Shown here in pieces: positions 8,094 to 37,321 of a DNA stretch of 50,496 nucleotides. The stretch covers positions 1-50,496 of IMG/VR virus record IMGVR_UViG_3300020235_000070; one strand, 5' to 3'. Source of the DNA: a virus (taxonomy: Duplodnaviria > Caudoviricetes). Every line of letters starts with the position of its first letter. The first letter of the stretch is position 1. Made by a program: the position numbers and the translations under genes. The notes below the pieces were generated by a model. It was given only the letters and a program-made list of their open reading frames with translations, was not told the origin of the DNA and ran no database searches.

Positions 8094-8355
8094 ATATACT
8101 AACCTCCTCGTCTGGTTCCTCTGACTCAAGCATCTTTTCATACAAGTTAAACATCTCCCTACTATGCTGCGACGACATAAAGACTCCCTCGATCCACTTA
8201 CAGTTAATGATACAGGGTGCCCCGAAGATGTCTATTGTCCTGTGGGTAGTTTTCAATCGCATAGCTACTTCGATTGCATCTAGATCCCCCTCTGGGAGCG
8301 AGAAGGCTACGTCACTACTAGAGATCACCCGTAGAAACGTCCTAGGAATTTCCAT
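8086..8355 (-). CDS. Hypothetical protein
   Basis: 89 aa, TAATG coupling. Confidence 0.6.
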   Translation of the reverse strand: MEIPRTFLRVISSSDVAFSLPEGDLDAIEVAMRLKTTHRTIDIFGAPCIINCKWIEGVFMSSQHSREMFNLYEKMLESEEPDEEVSIYE

Positions 8356-8786
8356 TAGAATTCAAAGCCCTCGGCCATGGTGATAGATTCAATACGTTCT
8401 AAGAGAGATTGTTCAATCTCCTTGAGCATAGGCATTTCAAAACCGTAAATAACATACAGCTCACCAAAGCGGGCTTGAATCAGTCGCTTCACTGTGATTG
8501 TGTCCATTAGGATCACATCACTATTAACCACCTTAGCAATTATGAATGGCTCAGGAACCACATAGAATTCTCCACCATCTGCAAAGGTAAGTTTATCCCC
8601 CGAGTATCCATTAAACATAACGTGGTCAGATGTTTCTAGATTCTCTCTTACGTCTGGACCTAGGTCTGTAACGATACCTTGATTAACTCGACGCCGGACG
8701 GAATCGGGAATAAAGATGGAACCTATCTTTTCGTCAGGATAGATCGGGTGGACAATCACATCGTTTCCAATGGCTACGGGCATCAT
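8355..8786 (-). CDS. groES: GroES/Cpn10 co-chaperonin with a C-terminal extension
   Basis: GNDVIVHP, GSIFIPDS mobile loop, QGIVTDLGP, DHVMFNGYSG, IIAKV. Confidence 0.85.
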   Translation of the reverse strand: MMPVAIGNDVIVHPIYPDEKIGSIFIPDSVRRRVNQGIVTDLGPDVRENLETSDHVMFNGYSGDKLTFADGGEFYVVPEPFIIAKVVNSDVILMDTITVKRLIQARFGELYVIYGFEMPMLKEIEQSLLERIESITMAEGFEF

Positions 8787-13414: not shown

Positions 13415-13810
13415 TTATCCATCCTTTAATCCATTCATATGCGGCCACATCCAAGCTGGTCTACAATGATACCACCATGTTATTGGAATATCTTTTTGAG
13501 GAACCAACGCCACACTCCCACACCAATGCTCAGGATCATCGTGATATGTGTTGCAGCGTTTACATTTTACTAACTCTGAGATACCTGCCAACTTTCTTTC
13601 TGCTTTTCTAAGTGGAGAGTCATTAAGATAGACTACTTCGTAAGGCTTCTTAGTACCCTCTGCATAGAATTCATAGTGACTACTATATACATCATCATCC
13701 CTCATTTCTTGTGTTACAAATTTATCATACTTACTGTACCACTTCTTCATCTTATCTAAATCTTCGGGCTTACTTGGAGTTAGATCATCAAGGATTAAGA
13801 ATTTATTCAT
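13415..13810 (-). CDS. Hypothetical protein with a C-terminal Cys/His cluster
   Basis: CKRC..H...HWC. Confidence 0.6.
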   Translation of the reverse strand: MNKFLILDDLTPSKPEDLDKMKKWYSKYDKFVTQEMRDDDVYSSHYEFYAEGTKKPYEVVYLNDSPLRKAERKLAGISELVKCKRCNTYHDDPEHWCGSVALVPQKDIPITWWYHCRPAWMWPHMNGLKDG

Positions 13811-14348
13811 CGGGTGTCCAATACAATTCTGCGTATTCCACTTTCGTACTCAACGTAATTCCCTTGTCCTCGTGGTCCATAAATCCCCAATCATTAGTCT
13901 TAGTCCAATCGAATAACTTCTGCTTATCCTCTGGCTTTAGAATAACATTCGGGAATCGTAGCTCAACATACCCTTGCTTCTCACCCTCTAGAGCCCCGGC
14001 AAGTACATCAAATAGATTCACGCCGGATTCTATTGTTCCTTTGACGACTCTATTATTGCTTCCACTATCCGAAACAGTGTCCTCCCCAACAGCAACCCCA
14101 ACGGGACCGCGAGTATATTCAGCGACAACAGCATCGTGTTCCACCTTAAATTTGAAGTTATGGAAAATAGAATCGTAGTAGTGTTTTAAGTCTTGGAATT
14201 TTTTAGACGCAAGGACGGCCTCGCGTAGCTTGTAGGCAAGCTTGGTAGGATTAGTGGTTTCAAACCGGAAGTTTTCCTTAGCTTCTAACAACTGATCTAG
14301 CTGAGGTTTATTCCGATTGACCGCGTGGCGAGTAAGATTATAACCCAT
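13803..14348 (-). CDS. Hypothetical protein
   Basis: 181 aa, overlaps its neighbours. Confidence 0.7.
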   Translation of the reverse strand: MGYNLTRHAVNRNKPQLDQLLEAKENFRFETTNPTKLAYKLREAVLASKKFQDLKHYYDSIFHNFKFKVEHDAVVAEYTRGPVGVAVGEDTVSDSGSNNRVVKGTIESGVNLFDVLAGALEGEKQGYVELRFPNVILKPEDKQKLFDWTKTNDWGFMDHEDKGITLSTKVEYAELYWTPDE

Positions 14349-14541
14349 TGGGTCTTATGGGACGAGGATAATGTCCTTCAAGCTTCTTGTATTCTTCACG
14401 GAAGGATTCTTTTGCATCCAACCAGCGACCTTTATGCTTACACAGTTTGAGTATTGCAAAGAGGTGTCTTATTGGAGAGCAATCGTCGAAGAAGGTTTTG
14501 TGCTCCCGCCAAATCTTGTTAAAAGCTGATCTAACTAACAT
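14338..14541 (-). CDS. Hypothetical protein
   Basis: 67 aa, GAGG RBS. Confidence 0.55.
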   Translation of the reverse strand: MLVRSAFNKIWREHKTFFDDCSPIRHLFAILKLCKHKGRWLDAKESFREEYKKLEGHYPRPIRPNGL

Positions 14542-14776
14542 AATTTACCCTCTCTGGAAAATCTTTGTAAATTTCCATAAATGCATTTCTTAAGCCTGGC
14601 TTGAGTAGCTCGTGAAATGTGTCCCGCGTTACCTCACCTAGTTTATCGTAGGCTGGATCATCTAGTAGGTCTGTAATGGGTTGGACGTACAATCTCTCTG
14701 CTAACAACGCCGAGCACAGTACACCCGCCGCAACCCGATTACGGACTAGGGTTAGAAACTTTCTTCGACTTAGCAT
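14531..14776 (-). CDS. Small protein with a twin-arginine-like N-terminus and a segment similar to the major capsid N-terminus
   Basis: MLSRRKFL; RDTFHELLKPGLRNAFMEIYKDFPE versus MCP RGAFNHLLRPGLRRDFRDSYMGFEE; GGAGG RBS. Confidence 0.7.
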   Translation of the reverse strand: MLSRRKFLTLVRNRVAAGVLCSALLAERLYVQPITDLLDDPAYDKLGEVTRDTFHELLKPGLRNAFMEIYKDFPERVNYVS

Positions 14777-14939
14777 CTAAGACCTCCCCATGTGAATTAA
14801 ACCTACAATCACACGCCGAACAATTATATTCCCATTCGTTAGTTGTCGCTAGTAGATATATTTCTACGTATTGTTTGCAATTTGGGCATATCTCTTTCAG
14901 GTACATCATCTTCTCCTGCTGCTGCTCTTGCCTCGTCAA
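14739..14939 (-). CDS. Zn-ribbon protein
   Basis: CPNC...CSAC; start uncertain. Confidence 0.5.
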   Translation of the reverse strand: MTRQEQQQEKMMYLKEICPNCKQYVEIYLLATTNEWEYNCSACDCRFNSHGEVLDAKSKKVSNPSP

Positions 14940-15423
14940 TTAAAGCTGCATCGTGGTCTGATAGAAGCGAAAGTTTGTCTAATCTTTCCAGCCAAATCTG
15001 TTCATGTTCTCCTCTACCTGGTCCTAATATCTCATCCACATCTTGTACAGAGTAGTGTATAGAATAAATGAACGCATTCATTTTCTTCACAGTAGTAATC
15101 ATATCGACGTTGTTGGTATCTTCGCATGATTGTACTATAAAGTAACTCAACATTCCCATACAATAACATAGGAGATCCCAATGTAGGGGTTGTTGAGCGG
15201 CCTCTTTATAATCTTCTAGACCTAGGGCTCTGATTATGAATGTGTTAATTAAATCTTGACGTTCCTCTATGGACAAATGTTTTGCATCGACAACCTCCAT
15301 CCTAGATGTGATGGTTTCTTCGAGAGTTTGCTTCAATGGTTTTGGAACGTAGTGGAGACAATTACACTTAGGGCAACTCCCACCGGGATGGTGGTGTCCA
15401 CAGAGACAGTACACTTTGGTCAC
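14839..15423 (-). CDS. Hypothetical protein with an N-terminal Cys/His finger
   Basis: CLCGHHH...CPKCNC; GTGA coupling. Confidence 0.6.
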   Translation of the reverse strand: MTKVYCLCGHHHPGGSCPKCNCLHYVPKPLKQTLEETITSRMEVVDAKHLSIEERQDLINTFIIRALGLEDYKEAAQQPLHWDLLCYCMGMLSYFIVQSCEDTNNVDMITTVKKMNAFIYSIHYSVQDVDEILGPGRGEHEQIWLERLDKLSLLSDHDAALIDEARAAAGEDDVPERDMPKLQTIRRNISTSDN

Positions 15424-15554
15424 TTGGTTGGCACCAACTCCCGCTCTTTCTCTGTCTCTTTCTTTTCTGGCTGCGGCTGCGTGTGGGGCGTTTTCTGTGG
15501 AATTACTTCGGGCTCGATCTCATGCTCTCTGATTGGCAATCCGATGTCACTCAT
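15420..15554 (-). CDS. Small Pro/Glu-rich peptide (44 aa)
   Basis: MSDIGLPIREHEIEPEVIPQ...; GAGGAG RBS. Confidence 0.55.
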   Translation of the reverse strand: MSDIGLPIREHEIEPEVIPQKTPHTQPQPEKKETEKERELVPTK

Positions 15555-15852
15555 TTTGATCTCCTCTTATTAAGTCAACTGCAACACCGTGACCTCTACT
15601 CGCTTCATCCCATGTACAATATCTCTCTTGGTATCCATCGTTTTCTCCACCAAAGATCATCGTTTCAAATAGGAGTGGTGGACCAGCACGACCATATCCA
15701 TGATCTAGACCAAGAAAAACTGTTGAGATTCTTACATCCCCAATATTGGTAACGTCCACATGACGATTAGTATATTCCAGGGCTCTAGCACCTGTCAGAA
15801 GATCCACCTTAAAAGGATTATGTTTCTCATCGAGAATATACCAATCAATCAT
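15547..15852 (-). CDS. Phage hypothetical protein (ISTVFLGLDH...LFETMIFGG type)
   Basis: Motif pattern I associate with phage early genes; ATGA coupling. Confidence 0.7.
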   Translation of the reverse strand: MIDWYILDEKHNPFKVDLLTGARALEYTNRHVDVTNIGDVRISTVFLGLDHGYGRAGPPLLFETMIFGGENDGYQERYCTWDEASRGHGVAVDLIRGDQNE

Positions 15853-17494: not shown

Positions 17495-17641
17495 TTACTT
17501 CCCGTCTAATCTCTCATAATACACCTCCTTTTCTTCTAGCTTTTCTTTGTGTCTGTTTTCTTCTAGATGTGTGAGACAGAAGAACTCTCCACCTTCAGCA
17601 GCTCTGTAACACTCATCTTCTTCCCATTGACACTTAGCCAT
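17495..17641 (-). CDS. Small Cys/His protein (48 aa)
   Basis: MAKCQWEEDEC...FC..H; AAGGA RBS. Confidence 0.5.
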   Translation of the reverse strand: MAKCQWEEDECYRAAEGGEFFCLTHLEENRHKEKLEEKEVYYERLDGK

Positions 17642-17646
17642 TATGT

Positions 17647-17853
17647 TTATCCTTCCCCCGAACGCTGTTTTAATTGAATTTCTTTACAATCATCCAGTGC
17701 CCGTTCAAGAAAATCTACGAAAGCATCTGTCGTAGCAAAGAAAGTTAGGTTAGGTTTTCCATTCACCCAAACCTGCACTTGATTTCCATGTGATGAAAAA
17801 AATTTCATCGGCGTAAATTGTCCAACAGCATACGCCTTGAGTTCTACTATCAT
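17647..17853 (-). CDS. Hypothetical protein
   Basis: 68 aa, ATGA coupling. Confidence 0.55.
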   Translation of the reverse strand: MIVELKAYAVGQFTPMKFFSSHGNQVQVWVNGKPNLTFFATTDAFVDFLERALDDCKEIQLKQRSGEG

Positions 17854-30999: not shown

Positions 31000-31289
31000 T
31001 AATGTCAGAGCCAGGAGAACTAAAAGATACGATTTCACAGGCTTTAGCCGTAGCTACAGATAGAATGAGCCCCCCTAGGGACGAACATAGTGATTATGCG
31101 ATGAGAAGATTGGAAGTAGCACAACTATTAGAGGATCTTACTGGAGATAAGATCAAGGCGCTGGAGGTTCTGAGGAGATTTGAGGCAGGACTTTGGGCTA
31201 CAGCACTATTGTATAACGAGAACGCTGCACAAGCCCATCAATCATTTGGTGTAGGATTCGACGCCTTTTGTAAAGAACTAAAAGCGTAA
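30996..31289 (+). CDS. Hypothetical protein
   Basis: About 95 aa ORF. Confidence 0.6.
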   Translation: MIMSEPGELKDTISQALAVATDRMSPPRDEHSDYAMRRLEVAQLLEDLTGDKIKALEVLRRFEAGLWATALLYNENAAQAHQSFGVGFDAFCKELKA

Positions 31290-31298
31290 GGAGATAGA

Positions 31299-31721
31299 AT
31301 GTTGTTACAGGTAATCCAAGAAATCGCACAATCTGTATCAGAGGAGGGCTTGCCTACTGGTGGTATAGTTGGTATATTCCTAGGTATGGCAGCGGTTTCT
31401 GTGTTTATGCTGGACCGGCTTGTATTCATCTTACAATCTCGTGGAATCATACCCACTAGAAAGGGTAACCCAAACGGACAACATAAACTAGGTGATCTTC
31501 ATAAGTGGTATACCCCAGATAAACCTGGAGGCGTACCTCCGTTTGTAACCTGGTTCGCGTTGGACGAGTTTCGTGAAACACAGACTAAGTTGGAGAGTGC
31601 AATCAAAAACAATACGGAAACGACTCAACTGCTGATCCAGACTCTACAGGTTATGCAGGAATCGTCAAATCTGAGAGATGAGCAAATCCAGAAGATAATC
31701 AGTAAGTTGGAAGCGGCTTAA
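31299..31721 (+). CDS. Membrane protein with a C-terminal coiled coil (holin/lysis-associated?)
   Basis: One TM segment plus a heptad-like tail; AAGGAG RBS. Confidence 0.5.
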   Translation: MLLQVIQEIAQSVSEEGLPTGGIVGIFLGMAAVSVFMLDRLVFILQSRGIIPTRKGNPNGQHKLGDLHKWYTPDKPGGVPPFVTWFALDEFRETQTKLESAIKNNTETTQLLIQTLQVMQESSNLRDEQIQKIISKLEAA

Positions 31722-34280: not shown

Positions 34281-34977
34281 AAGTCCCTTTGGTCATCCCG
34301 ATTTGAAAGGGATGTCAGAAGATGATATTGCAAATAGACTTGCACTATTAAATTCTACTGTAAAAGAACAAGGCGCAGCATTATCAGAAGCTACAAGAGC
34401 TGCTGCGTCAGTAACTAGTCCTACAGTAGAAGGTACACCTGAGCGTAAAACGTCAACTGCTGCTGAGTTCTGGGAAGATCCTGCTAAAGAGATCAAGACC
34501 ATGATTCAAGAGCAGATGGAAGAAACTATTAAACCTTTCAGAGAGGATCTACAGGCTGGAAGGGCACGAACAGCTTTGGAAAGGGTTACATCTAGACACC
34601 CTGACTTTGCTGAAAGAAAACCTATGATAGATTCTTTGCTATCTAGAATGGGAATAGAAGATCCAGATGAAGGAACTCTGGAAATGCTGTTTCATACAGC
34701 AGTAGGATTGCAGGTACAGGCAGGAGGAAATGCGACAGTTAAGGCAGAAGATCCAACCAGGGTAGAAGATTCACAGCGCAGAGATCCTCCACCTCAACAT
34801 GCCCCATCTAGCCATCCTGTTGCAAAGGGCACAGAAGGTAAGAAAGAATACAGAGAACTCACCGAGAGCGAGAAGGAAGTTCGTAGGATGCAGGGATTTA
34901 AGACGGATAATGAATACCTCGATTGGCTGGAATTAGACGATGCAGACCTATTAACCGAGGCTAAGACCAATGATTGA
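34126..34977 (+). CDS. Capsid scaffolding protein
   Basis: Acidic and helical, FWEDP, HPDF, C-terminal LTESEKEV...EYL; AAGGAG RBS. Confidence 0.75.
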   Translation: MVKMPWDKEKKEDKESTSKTSAGDLDLGDDKKDPPKKVETITDPPPTPTGTESPFGHPDLKGMSEDDIANRLALLNSTVKEQGAALSEATRAAASVTSPTVEGTPERKTSTAAEFWEDPAKEIKTMIQEQMEETIKPFREDLQAGRARTALERVTSRHPDFAERKPMIDSLLSRMGIEDPDEGTLEMLFHTAVGLQVQAGGNATVKAEDPTRVEDSQRRDPPPQHAPSSHPVAKGTEGKKEYRELTESEKEVRRMQGFKTDNEYLDWLELDDADLLTEAKTND

Positions 34978-35917
34978 CCCGATTGAAATTACACCAGATA
35001 AGGCAGGGGAACAGTATGATCTGCCAGAAGATGATCTGCCACAGGATGATATGCCAGAAGATGAGGGTGAGGGCAAGCAGGAGACAACAGCCTTTACTGC
35101 TGAAGAAGCTCTGGATGCTATAGCAGAAGCAGACGCGGATCTACCTCTCAATGAGTTGGCAGAGAATATAAAAGATCAACTGGTGGAGGCTGTTGAGGGG
35201 ATTATAGAAGAAGCTGCGGAAGCTGCTGAAGCTGTGACTGAAACTGTAGTACCAGATCCAGATGCGGAACAGGAAATCTGGGAACCTGGAGAACTTGCAA
35301 AGGTATATCCTTCTGAGGTTCCTGTTGAGGAACCTACAACTATCCATCGAACGCGACTTCCAGGGGACGAGATAAAAGCAGAACCCACAGTAGAGCGAGA
35401 TATTAAAGCTGCTGCTACTGAGTATAGTGTGAGTCAGTTGGAAATGGCTCACCAGTTTCTGAATAAGTATGGTATCAGAACAGATAAGCTCTCCGATCTA
35501 CAGGTTATGGAGAAGCTCCAGAAGATCCAAGATGCTAGAGAAGTTGCATCTCAGGTTCTTTCTCGTGGTAGAGTTATGGATACTGTGGACCGTATCTTAG
35601 AGGATCTACCAGACGGGTTGGTAGGGGAATTCAAGCGAGATAACGATCTTGATATATCTCGTGCTAGGGCTCTGCATTGGCAAGTGTATATAGATAAAGA
35701 GCTTGCTCAACAGACACTTACTGCCGCAGATGATGGGTGTGTTAGGTTAGGCGATCTAATACTTATGGTTATACCAGAGGAGACTTACGTTGGTAATCGC
35801 CTCGCAAGGGCTGACAGACTAGCCGAAAGGAGGGTAGTAAGGAAAAGAAAGGGGAAGCCAAAACAAGGGGACGAGATTATGGGAGCCGATCCCAAAGTCC
35901 CCATCATTCAACTGTAG
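34970..35917 (+). CDS. Head-module protein with a long acidic N-terminus
   Basis: C-terminal RLGDLILMVIPEE motif; lies between the scaffold and cement genes. Confidence 0.65.
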   Translation: MIDPIEITPDKAGEQYDLPEDDLPQDDMPEDEGEGKQETTAFTAEEALDAIAEADADLPLNELAENIKDQLVEAVEGIIEEAAEAAEAVTETVVPDPDAEQEIWEPGELAKVYPSEVPVEEPTTIHRTRLPGDEIKAEPTVERDIKAAATEYSVSQLEMAHQFLNKYGIRTDKLSDLQVMEKLQKIQDAREVASQVLSRGRVMDTVDRILEDLPDGLVGEFKRDNDLDISRARALHWQVYIDKELAQQTLTAADDGCVRLGDLILMVIPEETYVGNRLARADRLAERRVVRKRKGKPKQGDEIMGADPKVPIIQL

Positions 35918-35926
35918 GAGATAGTT

Positions 35927-36403
35927 ATGGGACTGCAAAGGTTCCAGCCTGCAAGACGGGCTTCTGGCCCGCCGGAAATTGCGGAGTTTGATATTCAAGC
36001 TTCTGCAACTTTCCCAGCAGGCGCTCCGGTGCAGCGGGATACCGTAGAATCCGATATTGAAGAAGCTGCCGGTGGCGCAACCGTCGATGGTATTATCGGA
36101 ATAGGTATGTTTGGTGTAACTGCGGGATTGCCCGCTCCGAAAGGTAGCACAGGATTCGGAACCAGAGTTCTAGTGGCGATAGCAAACCACGATCAAGAAT
36201 TCTGGGGGATGCTTTCAGACGGGACTGATGTTCAGGTTCCTGATTCTGGAAATGAGGGTACGGACTACGGAATAGTCAAAGTCAGTGGCGAGTGGTATGT
36301 GGATGAATCCGATATCAGCGACGTTGTTTTGACAGTTACGAAGTCGTTCCCTGACAACAGGACTCTGTTGTTCAAATTCCTCGCAAGCGCCGTATCTTTC
36401 TAA
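35927..36403 (+). CDS. Capsid cement/decoration protein (putative)
   Basis: 158 aa, Gly/Ala-rich, directly upstream of the MCP. Confidence 0.6.
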   Translation: MGLQRFQPARRASGPPEIAEFDIQASATFPAGAPVQRDTVESDIEEAAGGATVDGIIGIGMFGVTAGLPAPKGSTGFGTRVLVAIANHDQEFWGMLSDGTDVQVPDSGNEGTDYGIVKVSGEWYVDESDISDVVLTVTKSFPDNRTLLFKFLASAVSF

Positions 36404-36415
36404 AGGAGGAGTATT

Positions 36416-37321
36416 ATGCATGTACGCGGCGCATTTAATCATCTGCTGCGCCCAGGGCTTCGGAGAGACTTCAGAGACAGTTATATGGGCTTTGAAGAAG
36501 AGTATAGCAGGATTCTCCGTACTGGAACTATGGATAGAGCAGAAGTAGAAGTTACCACCATTTCTAGTCTGCCAAGACAGGTACAGATGGCTGAAGGTGA
36601 GTCATTTACTATCGTTGACGCAGAGCTGGCTGACAAGATTGTTTATTCGGATACTCAGTTCGGTCTTGGGATTTCAATATCTCAGGAGCTTATGGAGGAC
36701 GATCAGTATAACAAGGCTAATCAGTCTGCGAAGTGGTTGGCACGTTCCACGAGGCTTTCACAAGAGCATGAGGTTGGGGATTGGCTTGACGATGCTTTTG
36801 ATGGAAACACGTTCACAGGATTTGAGGGAGAGTCCCTAATCTCTGCTTCGCATGAACTTATCGGATCGGATCAAACGTGGTCTAACCAGATTGCTGGAAA
36901 TCTCCAGCTTGGTGTGACTTCTCTCCAGGCAGCGTTTGAGCTTGGTGAGCAGACAGTAGATCATGTCAATGAGCCGATTCCGGTTCGTATTGACACGTTG
37001 TTTATTAATATCGCAGAAGAGTGGATGGCAAGACAGCTCACGATGAACGAGCATGAGCCGTTTACTTCTGACCGCAATATTAACGCAACACGTAGTAAGA
37101 GGCAGCTTTCTTTCGTTGTTTCTCACTACAAAGATCAGACTGGTTCGGACTGGTTTGCGCGTGACACGCAGATGCACGATGCACATTTCCTGTTTAGAGT
37201 GCGTCCACAGTTCCCTGACTGGTTTGAGGACAAAACTCGTTCTGCTTTCTTCGCCTCAAGGCAGAGGTTCCTCGTCTATCACTACGATCCTAGAGGCTGG
37301 ATCGGATCTAACGCGGCCTAG
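36416..37321 (+). CDS. Major capsid protein (HK97 fold, Mu gpT-like)
   Basis: LLRPGLR, EGE, ISQELMEDDQY, L.SASH, DPRGWIGS; strong GGAGGAG RBS. Confidence 0.9.
   Translation: MHVRGAFNHLLRPGLRRDFRDSYMGFEEEYSRILRTGTMDRAEVEVTTISSLPRQVQMAEGESFTIVDAELADKIVYSDTQFGLGISISQELMEDDQYNKANQSAKWLARSTRLSQEHEVGDWLDDAFDGNTFTGFEGESLISASHELIGSDQTWSNQIAGNLQLGVTSLQAAFELGEQTVDHVNEPIPVRIDTLFINIAEEWMARQLTMNEHEPFTSDRNINATRSKRQLSFVVSHYKDQTGSDWFARDTQMHDAHFLFRVRPQFPDWFEDKTRSAFFASRQRFLVYHYDPRGWIGSNAA

Follow-up and report, generated by a model that had tools for sequence, protein, structure and literature searches.

A small accessory phage protein that pairs a conserved twin-arginine-type leader with a copy of the capsid protein N-arm

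The window analyzed here, the whole 50,496-bp stretch of IMG/VR virus record IMGVR_UViG_3300020235_000070, is a complete record bounded by direct terminal repeats. Its minus strand carries a gene for an 81-amino-acid (aa) protein, P0002, which we conclude is a two-part chimera of an N-terminal, signal-like leader and a C-terminal part homologous to the N-terminal arm (N-arm) of the phage's own major capsid protein (MCP). That P0002 is a real, translated accessory gene of the replication arm of an ~50-kb tailed phage is well supported: it has relatives, most codon differences in the leader are synonymous, and conservation does not extend into the DNA upstream. We regard the protein as a fragment paralogue and not as a capsid protein, since it holds the arm only, with MCP positions 2-29 matched in a total of 81 aa. 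The open reading frame (ORF) claimed in an initial annotation of this DNA exists as described, and the capsid gene that the annotation placed about 22 kb away lies 21.6 kb away on the opposite strand. The parts of the two genes are as follows.

14531..14776, minus strand: whole ORF of P0002, 81 aa plus stop, with the ATG at 14776 and the stop codon included at 14531.
14783..14787, minus strand: GGAGG, resembling a ribosome-binding site, 6 nucleotides (nt) 5' of the ATG, read from the sequence.
14690..14776, minus strand: leader, residues 1-29, with [NS]-R-R-x-F-L, the basic cluster R12-N13-R14 and an uncharged stretch at residues 15-26.
14636..14689, minus strand: linker, residues 30-47, common to the relative P0005 and partly to the relative P0010, without similarity to the MCP.
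14549..14635, minus strand: capsid N-arm copy, residues 48-76, homologous to MCP residues 1/2-29.
36416..37321, plus strand: MCP gene, 301 aa, HK97 fold, Mu gpT-like/Phage_capsid_4, the source of the copied segment.
36416..36520, plus strand: part of the MCP gene that codes for the N-arm, residues 1-35, from MCP-family alignments and the AlphaFold2 (AF2) model.

An ungapped alignment pairs residues 49-76 of P0002 with MCP residues 2-29, and by hand count 12 of the 28 positions are identical, in agreement with the initial annotation; BLASTP of the pair gives 12 of 30 identical at E 6e-6. Across the six frames of the window, the MCP is the top non-self ungapped match of P0002 (score, 62), a score reached by none of 300 shuffles of the protein (mean, 40.1; standard deviation, 3.6; maximum, 56). 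A hidden Markov model (HMM) of the MCP family, built from 115 sequences, matches residues 49-76 at E 4.2e-6 (Z=12) and at E 0.0021 against the 7,854 stop-to-stop frames of nine genomes, namely the window and eight complete or near-complete IMG/VR relatives. In the reverse direction, of 17 related phage records compared with a profile of the small-protein family, 11 show a match at the N-terminus of the MCP. The significance in profile searches that the initial annotation had expected was thus obtained both ways. Chance resemblance was considered and is excluded by the shuffles and by the two HMM matches. We conclude that the homology between the P0002 tail and the N-terminus of the MCP is genuine.

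The 301-aa protein at 36416..37321 is an HK97-fold major capsid protein. It matches phrog_371 (E 1.9e-7) and, weakly, Phage_capsid_4 and Mu gpT. Its AF2 model (pLDDT, 86; pTM, 0.82) matched at least 376 PDB entries at E<=0.001, the Mu capsid and HK97 among them; in Foldseek, the capsids of D3, Mu (9jod), and HK97 came out at E 1e-10 to 1e-11. The protein has more than 180 close relatives of equal length (186 proteins at E<=1e-5), many of them with PF25209. In the model, the N-arm spans residues 1-34 (pLDDT of <50 at residues 1-15), with short helices at 7-10, 17-25, and 30-33; the E-loop comprises residues 43-78, and within residues 75-108 lie two strands (75-89), a short helix, and the beginning of the spine helix. 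In alignments, the first 23 residues are the best-conserved part of the MCP family, with D18 and R20 conserved in at least 90% of MCPs. The AF2 model of P0002 is of low confidence (pLDDT, 65) and was left out of fold searches; it draws the leader as a single helix (residues 4-31), and its predicted short helices in the N-arm copy coincide with the places of the N-arm helices in the MCP model.

Residues F7, L10, L11, R/K12, P13, G14, L15, F19, and Y23 (MCP numbering) are kept, and the hydrophobic motif survives in 8 to 9 of the 9 N-arm-bearing members; charged positions are lost, position 18 being D in three of nine and position 20 being R in one of nine. The window's own MCP is no nearer to the P0002 copy than are other MCPs (12/34 identical for its own versus 13/34 for that of the relative genome G001), and the residues shared by copy and MCP are encoded by different codons. 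For these reasons, and because the tails of the window and G001 are ~43% identical (hand count) while their MCPs are 72% identical, we judge that the N-arm copy is old. Recent gene conversion from the capsid gene was considered and rejected, as the copy is not closest to its own MCP and the codons of shared residues differ.

P0002 belongs to what we consider a small, undescribed family defined by the leader and homologous tails. A near-length search recovered five relatives (P0005 to P0009) and an all-length HMMER search six more (P0010 to P0014 and P0017). Together with P0002, these make the 12 database proteins on which family counts are based; two ORFs from the relative genomes G001 and G008 bring the members to 14. 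Two further, leaderless proteins were set aside: P0015 (1229 aa), which matches only via a weak internal repeat, and P0016 (467 aa). The all-length search found no long protein with the leader, and no separate search was aimed at longer proteins. Pfam, PHROGs, and NCBIfam hold no family for P0002 save a sub-threshold match to TIGR01409, and a phage GenBank collection gave no DNA or protein match to the region or to the 81-aa protein.

All relatives with an intact N-terminus carry a nearly invariant 29-aa leader, followed by tails of 45 to 88 aa. Nine of the 12 proteins match the MCP HMM, seven on the N-arm and two on MCP residues 75-108. The N-arm matches run from MCP position 1 or 2 to positions 29-49 (P0006, E 1.5e-10; P0010, 1.4e-9; P0007, 2e-8; P0005, 1.5e-7; P0002, 4.2e-6; P0011, 7e-6; P0017, 8.5e-3); the matches to residues 75-108 are those of P0009 (3.9e-6) and P0012 (7.6e-4). 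With leaders removed, tail-only BLAST joins the proteins into one connected network, in which P0008, P0013, and P0014 are linked via P0011, P0012, and each other, and the tails from G001 and G008 also match other tails (P0005 at 50% identity, E 2.6e-8; 36% identity, E 1.8e-5). The connected network fits a single ancestral capture of about the first 110 MCP residues with differing deletions later. An origin by ancient partial duplication of the phage's own MCP gene, placed behind a leader, is well supported by these comparisons, and the ancestral piece probably comprised the N-arm and the first P-domain strands, to about residue 110.

The leader is built to a common plan: the motif, three residues, R-N-R, 11 to 12 uncharged residues with small ones spaced i/i+4, and an acidic residue. 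In P0002 it reads M-L-S-R-R-K-F-L, then R12, N13, and R14, then 12 uncharged residues (15-26), and 16 columns are invariant across nine sequences. Leader codons were compared in the DNA of three members (the window, L001, and L002) of the five for which DNA was at hand. Differences fall mainly at third codon positions, and the ratio of nonsynonymous to synonymous change (pN/pS) is 0.17, 0.21, and 0.11, with pS at 0.38 to 0.89 and pN at 0.04 to 0.17; the DNA 5' of the leader is unconserved in the same three. Third-position differences together with unconserved upstream DNA argue that selection acts on the translated peptide, and we conclude that selection on the leader protein is strong. The same two observations led us to reject a DNA or RNA element as the source of the conservation.

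The initial annotation had tied its interpretation to homologs that retain both the twin arginines and the LLxPGL motif. The first part largely stands, [NS]-R-R-x-F-L being present in 11 of the 12 members with an assessable N-terminus, including the otherwise unrelated leader of the G001 ORF. The second does not, as L-[LM]-x-P-G-L is kept in 6 of 14 members, degenerate in 2, and absent from 6. Likewise sought in related phages was the same fusion, which was found both in the family relatives and in G001, where an unrelated R-R leader precedes an N-arm copy.

Might the ORF be a nonfunctional relic or a chance product, a capsid-gene leftover in a spurious frame? Phage genomes are rich in gene fragments, and the protein is absent from the family libraries searched. 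Chance is excluded by the shuffles and HMM matches given above, a conserved family with pN/pS of 0.11 to 0.21 excludes a spurious ORF, and conservation in the tail is motif specific. We consider this explanation largely refuted and its remaining probability very small.

Besides the MCPs, matches to the MCP or N-arm HMM at E<=0.03 in the nine genomes are confined to three small replication-arm ORFs, that of the window and the two below, and, more weakly, the next ORF of the window.

G001, 31152-31385, plus strand: N-arm-copy ORF of 70 aa, with a sequence-unrelated leader that begins M-N-R-R-G-F-L, 13 uncharged residues, and the N-arm copy.
G008 (L099), 17547-17798, minus strand: N-arm-copy ORF of 74 aa, with a different N-terminus that lacks the motif.

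The gene, detected in three of the nine genomes, occupies three insertion positions in otherwise collinear arms. It lies before a 181-aa gene in the window, between homologues of the window's 75-aa gene and exonuclease-like gene in G001, and, in L001, L002, and G008, before a Cpn10-like gene and after a gene that has no family match and is possibly, by our guess, for a single-strand-binding protein. With its three different positions in collinear arms and its patchy distribution, the N-arm-copy gene behaves as a mobile accessory gene. Leader-pattern scans of IMG/VR and of species-genome contigs returned 33 and 25 pattern matches, respectively, with no relative in either. An MCP scan of 185,579 species genomes found one 51-kb contig binned in a metagenome-assembled genome (MAG; L102), on which the small-protein family profile finds only the MCP itself.

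In the window, the large terminase, portal, and MCP genes make up a plus-strand structural arm. The minus-strand arm, in which P0002 lies, holds a helicase gene, a Sak4-like annealing protein gene, an exonuclease-like gene, and numerous small ORFs without a family; 9 of the 10 neighbors of P0002 have no PHROG family match. The initial annotation had called these genes early, and a place beside replication genes makes early expression reasonable for P0002, by position only. A promoter and terminator scan of 13600-15600 found nothing exceeding shuffled expectation. Contigs from independent marine runs carry the ORF with 0 listed differences, in full on X3 and up to 14746 on X4.

We propose that the leader would take the protein to the cytoplasmic membrane, by Tat (twin-arginine translocation)-type targeting or as a short anchor, where the N-arm copy would act as a competitive surrogate for the real N-arm, binding whatever reads the arm and being unable to build a lattice. 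Such an imitation would keep the hydrophobic face of the arm and drop charged residues that lattice subunits retain. The preferred target would be a host factor that recognizes the conserved capsid N-arm, for example, a capsid-sensing abortive-infection or immune sensor, which an early-made mimic would block or divert ahead of the real capsid protein. Capsid proteins are said to be the immune triggers for Lit, through the Gol peptide, and for PifA, through T7 gp10. The review PMC13728456 describes CapRel, Thoeris, and CBASS as triggered by phage major capsid or head proteins. We prefer a host factor as target because the tail outpaces a nearly invariant arm in its evolution, because the gene looks like part of an arms race, and because capsids are well-known immune triggers. 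Furthermore, an R-R-type leader and an N-arm copy co-occur in two versions whose leaders are unrelated. We offer this reading, a membrane- or Tat-targeted N-arm mimic as competitive ligand with a host reader of the capsid arm as its target, as a tentative possibility.

A number of observations weigh against it, beginning with the leader. The Tat consensus [ST]-R-R-x-F-L-K is represented in P0002 by S-R-R-K-F-L at residues 3-8, and the motif is present in most members. With TIGR01409, however, P0002 reaches 14.3 bits (E 0.039) and falls short of the 16.7-bit cutoff; P0006, P0011, P0012, P0017, and the G001 ORF give no match to that model, and Pfam TAT_signal (PF10518) gives none at E<=10. P0011 has R-L in place of R-R. 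R12 and R14 separate the twin arginines from a hydrophobic stretch of only 11 to 12 uncharged residues, and no conserved A-x-A or small-x-small cleavage site was found across the family alignments; in the G001 leader, 13 uncharged residues follow R-R directly. Language-model clusters, which we take as leads only, place P0002 nearest the Fe-hydrogenase small subunit (0.91), PF10518 (0.90), and the Rieske TAT signal (0.87), and the G001 protein reaches the same Tat clusters only at 0.82 and 0.80. Of the initial annotation's Tat-like N-terminus, then, the motif stands, and membership of the Tat signal family is not supported. We describe the leader as signal-like and of twin-arginine type, and we do not file it as a Tat signal because TIGR01409 is below cutoff or silent and Pfam is silent.

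The signal-like character also invites the idea of an exported propeptide, in which a cleaved signal would release a capsid-like peptide acting outside the cytoplasm, for instance, as a phage-phage signal or a periplasmic blocker. A conserved leader with a variable C-terminal part, n- and h-regions like those of signals, and language-model neighbors with Tat signals all agree with it. Against it, no conserved cleavage site was seen, no receptor gene was recognized among the neighbors of P0002 (most of which lack a PHROG match), and there is no reason for a signal peptide to copy a capsid arm. We think this highly improbable.

Further points against the proposed mimic concern its tail and its range. 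P0008, P0013, and P0014 (3 of 12) have no significant MCP HMM match, several tails have internal deletions, and on both counts the tail may be one that the protein can do without. Conservation is far stronger in the leader than in the tail. Were the protein truly exported by Tat, its tail would come to lie beyond the cytoplasm, out of reach of cytoplasmic sensors and of capsid assembly; a copied trigger could activate a sensor instead of blocking it; and no prophage relative was found in the 185,579 species genomes. A complex prediction for the MCP with P0002 residues 36-81, run without controls, scored 0.00, which we count neither for nor against binding.

Were the tail indeed an eroding passenger, the leader itself would be the effector, a small membrane-active peptide or one that binds host machinery, for example, to block or use Tat or Sec. 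Near invariance of the leader in the face of saturated synonymous change favors such a role, as do the deletions, varied lengths, and occasional lack of MCP similarity of the tails, and protein E of phiX174 reportedly has a conserved N-terminal membrane part and a replaceable C-terminal part. Mere bulk, however, would not be expected to keep the N-arm motif through deep divergence, or where the leader has been replaced (G001) or is lacking (G008), and all tails are still mutually homologous. We regard the leader as sole effector as unlikely.

The copied pieces could instead act on the phage side. In that case, a leader-anchored copy would bind an N-arm partner, be it a neighboring MCP subunit, the putative scaffold (34970..35917), or the protein encoded at 35927..36403, and would poison co-infecting relatives or hold back or localize the phage's own assembly. 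N-arms of HK97-type shells contact neighboring subunits. For the Mu capsid, PMC11915804 describes N-arm conformations that vary among subunits. The copied pieces are MCP segments, the N-arm helices and, in P0009 and P0012, strands 75-89 with the start of the spine helix, and since the N-arm is the best-conserved MCP part across the clade, one mimic could act on many relatives. Yet a conserved partner should constrain the mimic and the MCP alike, and the tails have diverged much further than the MCPs; a mimic of a near-invariant arm would not spare the capsid protein of the phage that makes it; after true Tat export, the tail would lie on the wrong side of the membrane; and presence in three of nine genomes means that the gene is not part of a core assembly pathway. 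Interference with or tethering of capsid assembly thus seems to us as unlikely as a leader acting alone.

Taken more broadly as self-mimicry, in which a membrane- or Tat-targeted imitation of the phage's own N-arm silences or diverts a host sensor or poisons the capsid assembly of rival phages, the proposal is doubtful in our estimate. Siblings with MCP residues 75-108 would, under self-mimicry, aim at other recognition surfaces. Capsid proteins are among the commonest triggers of bacterial antiphage immunity, and the N-arm is the best-conserved part of this capsid family. If the proposal is true, a separate, fast-evolving, mobile arm-copy gene could be a phage means against capsid sensing or against competitors and would show which part of the capsid is "read." P0002 is in any case a clear example of a new gene made from a structural-gene fragment joined to a targeting leader, and even if the tail is a passenger, the near-invariant leader points to a contact with the envelope or the export machinery of the host that is under strong constraint.

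Directly downstream of P0002 lies a second ORF with some likeness to the MCP.

14338..14541, minus strand: downstream ORF of 67 aa, overlapping the P0002 end, with its first 12 residues resembling the MCP N-terminus.

It begins 11 nt before the end of P0002, stop codon counted. Seven of its first 12 residues are identical to the window MCP (hand count), a start-anchored test against the MCP profile gives z 5.3 with 0 of 5000 shuffles reaching the score, and the N-arm HMM matches at E 0.02 (7,854 frames); a second short match joins residues ~47-64 to MCP positions 18-35. No relative was found in a database search of 36- to 118-aa proteins. Possibly it is another N-arm derivative, one that lacks a leader; the locus would then be a degenerate tandem. 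A 196-base contig from run X2 matches 14364..14541 with 29 differences, and the match ends exactly at 14541, the junction of the 81-aa and 67-aa ORFs, in a loose end; a related strain with a mosaic boundary at this point may account for it.

The P0002 leader shows a similar likeness at its start. In a post hoc comparison anchored at the start codon, its first 12 residues resemble the first 12 of the MCP consensus in three members (z 2.8 to 2.9; p ~0.004 to 0.005), the resemblance not being significant for P0017 and G001, and hmmalign sets the P0013 and P0014 leaders on N-arm positions 1-12. There is only a hint here that the leader, with its twin-arginine-like motif, may have descended from a second copy of the capsid N-terminus.

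On the other side of P0002, a 66-aa ORF at 14739..14939 (minus strand) shares 38 nt with the start of the P0002 ORF in a different reading frame and runs into the tail of a 194-aa ORF at 14839..15423 as well; it has two C-x-x-C pairs and a weak Lar-like restriction-alleviation match (phrog_6422, E 0.0025). In G008 (L099, 17544..17970), the N-arm-copy ORF lies across the 3' part of a 128-aa ORF that is read in a different frame and whose N-terminal part we take, by eye, to resemble DUF4031. Cpn10 (GroES)-like genes have matches in eight of the nine genomes compared, with none listed for G001. Those of the window and of the genomes with adjacent copies are listed here.

Window, 8355..8786, minus strand: Cpn10-like gene.
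L002, 10277-10714: Cpn10-like gene.
L001, 673-1116: Cpn10-like gene.
L099, 16026-16541: Cpn10-like gene.

PF00166 matches the L001, L002, and G008 copies at 5e-7 to 1.5e-5, the window copy being assigned by BLAST similarity alone. The leader-bearing ORFs of L001 and L002 lie directly against the start of the Cpn10-like gene or overlap it. The co-chaperonin of T4 serves capsid-protein folding, and the adjacency may or may not be meaningful.

Two genes directly 5' of the MCP gene, both on the plus strand, encode natural candidates for N-arm partners. The 315-aa product of 34970..35917, with its acidic N-terminal part and basic C-terminus, resembles a scaffold in both position and composition; the 158-aa product of 35927..36403 takes the place of a decoration gene, as in lambda. 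Neither has a family match in Pfam or PHROGs. The MCP clade is common in metagenomes, on many contigs of 46 to 52 kb, and one MCP relative was named after an archaeal MAG by its source. The clade looks lytic and uncultivated, and bin labels are not to be taken as hosts.

We place P0002 among the phage accessory genes that have been assembled from pieces of other genes, possibly acting by molecular mimicry. Its residues 48-76 are homologous to the N-arm of Mu gpT-like/Phage_capsid_4 MCPs (PF10124, PF25209) and keep F7, L10, L11, P13, G14, L15, F19, and Y23. Unlike those proteins, P0002 has the arm only, without E-loop, P-domain, or A-domain, and so cannot be a shell subunit; its arm is internal, behind leader and linker, instead of a free N-terminus, and D18 and R20 are not kept. 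With Tat signals (TIGR01409, PF10518) it shares [ST/N]-R-R-x-F-L at residues 3-8 and a weakly hydrophobic stretch, and it differs from them in its sub-cutoff score, interposed arginines, short uncharged stretch, and lack of a conserved cleavage site. The family leader is, moreover, far more conserved than ordinary Tat signal peptides. P4 Sid, SaPI CpmB, and PICI Ccm, which are small proteins or homologues of the MCP, reportedly change assembly by binding to capsid proteins; those are said to come from satellites and to act on a helper phage, and none to be a leader-bearing N-arm fragment. For Lit with the short capsid peptide Gol, and for PifA with T7 gp10, the ligand is reportedly the capsid protein itself, in contrast to the separate arm-copy gene described here. 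Capsid proteins as ligands of immune sensors, with the MCP for CapRel-SJ46 and major head proteins for Thoeris, are also described in PMC13728456, there too with the capsid protein itself as ligand. The open-access literature searched for capsid decoys or mimics, phage Tat signals, and truncated capsid proteins describes no phage gene that copies its own capsid arm. Ocr, a DNA mimic, is said to follow the same logic of ligand imitation. So does the antitoxin mimic ICP1 Gp145, a small, early-made imitator that occupies a binding site, as described in PMC13728456. Unlike Gp145 and Ocr, P0002 would imitate a structural protein of the phage itself, and it would do so behind a membrane- or export-type leader.

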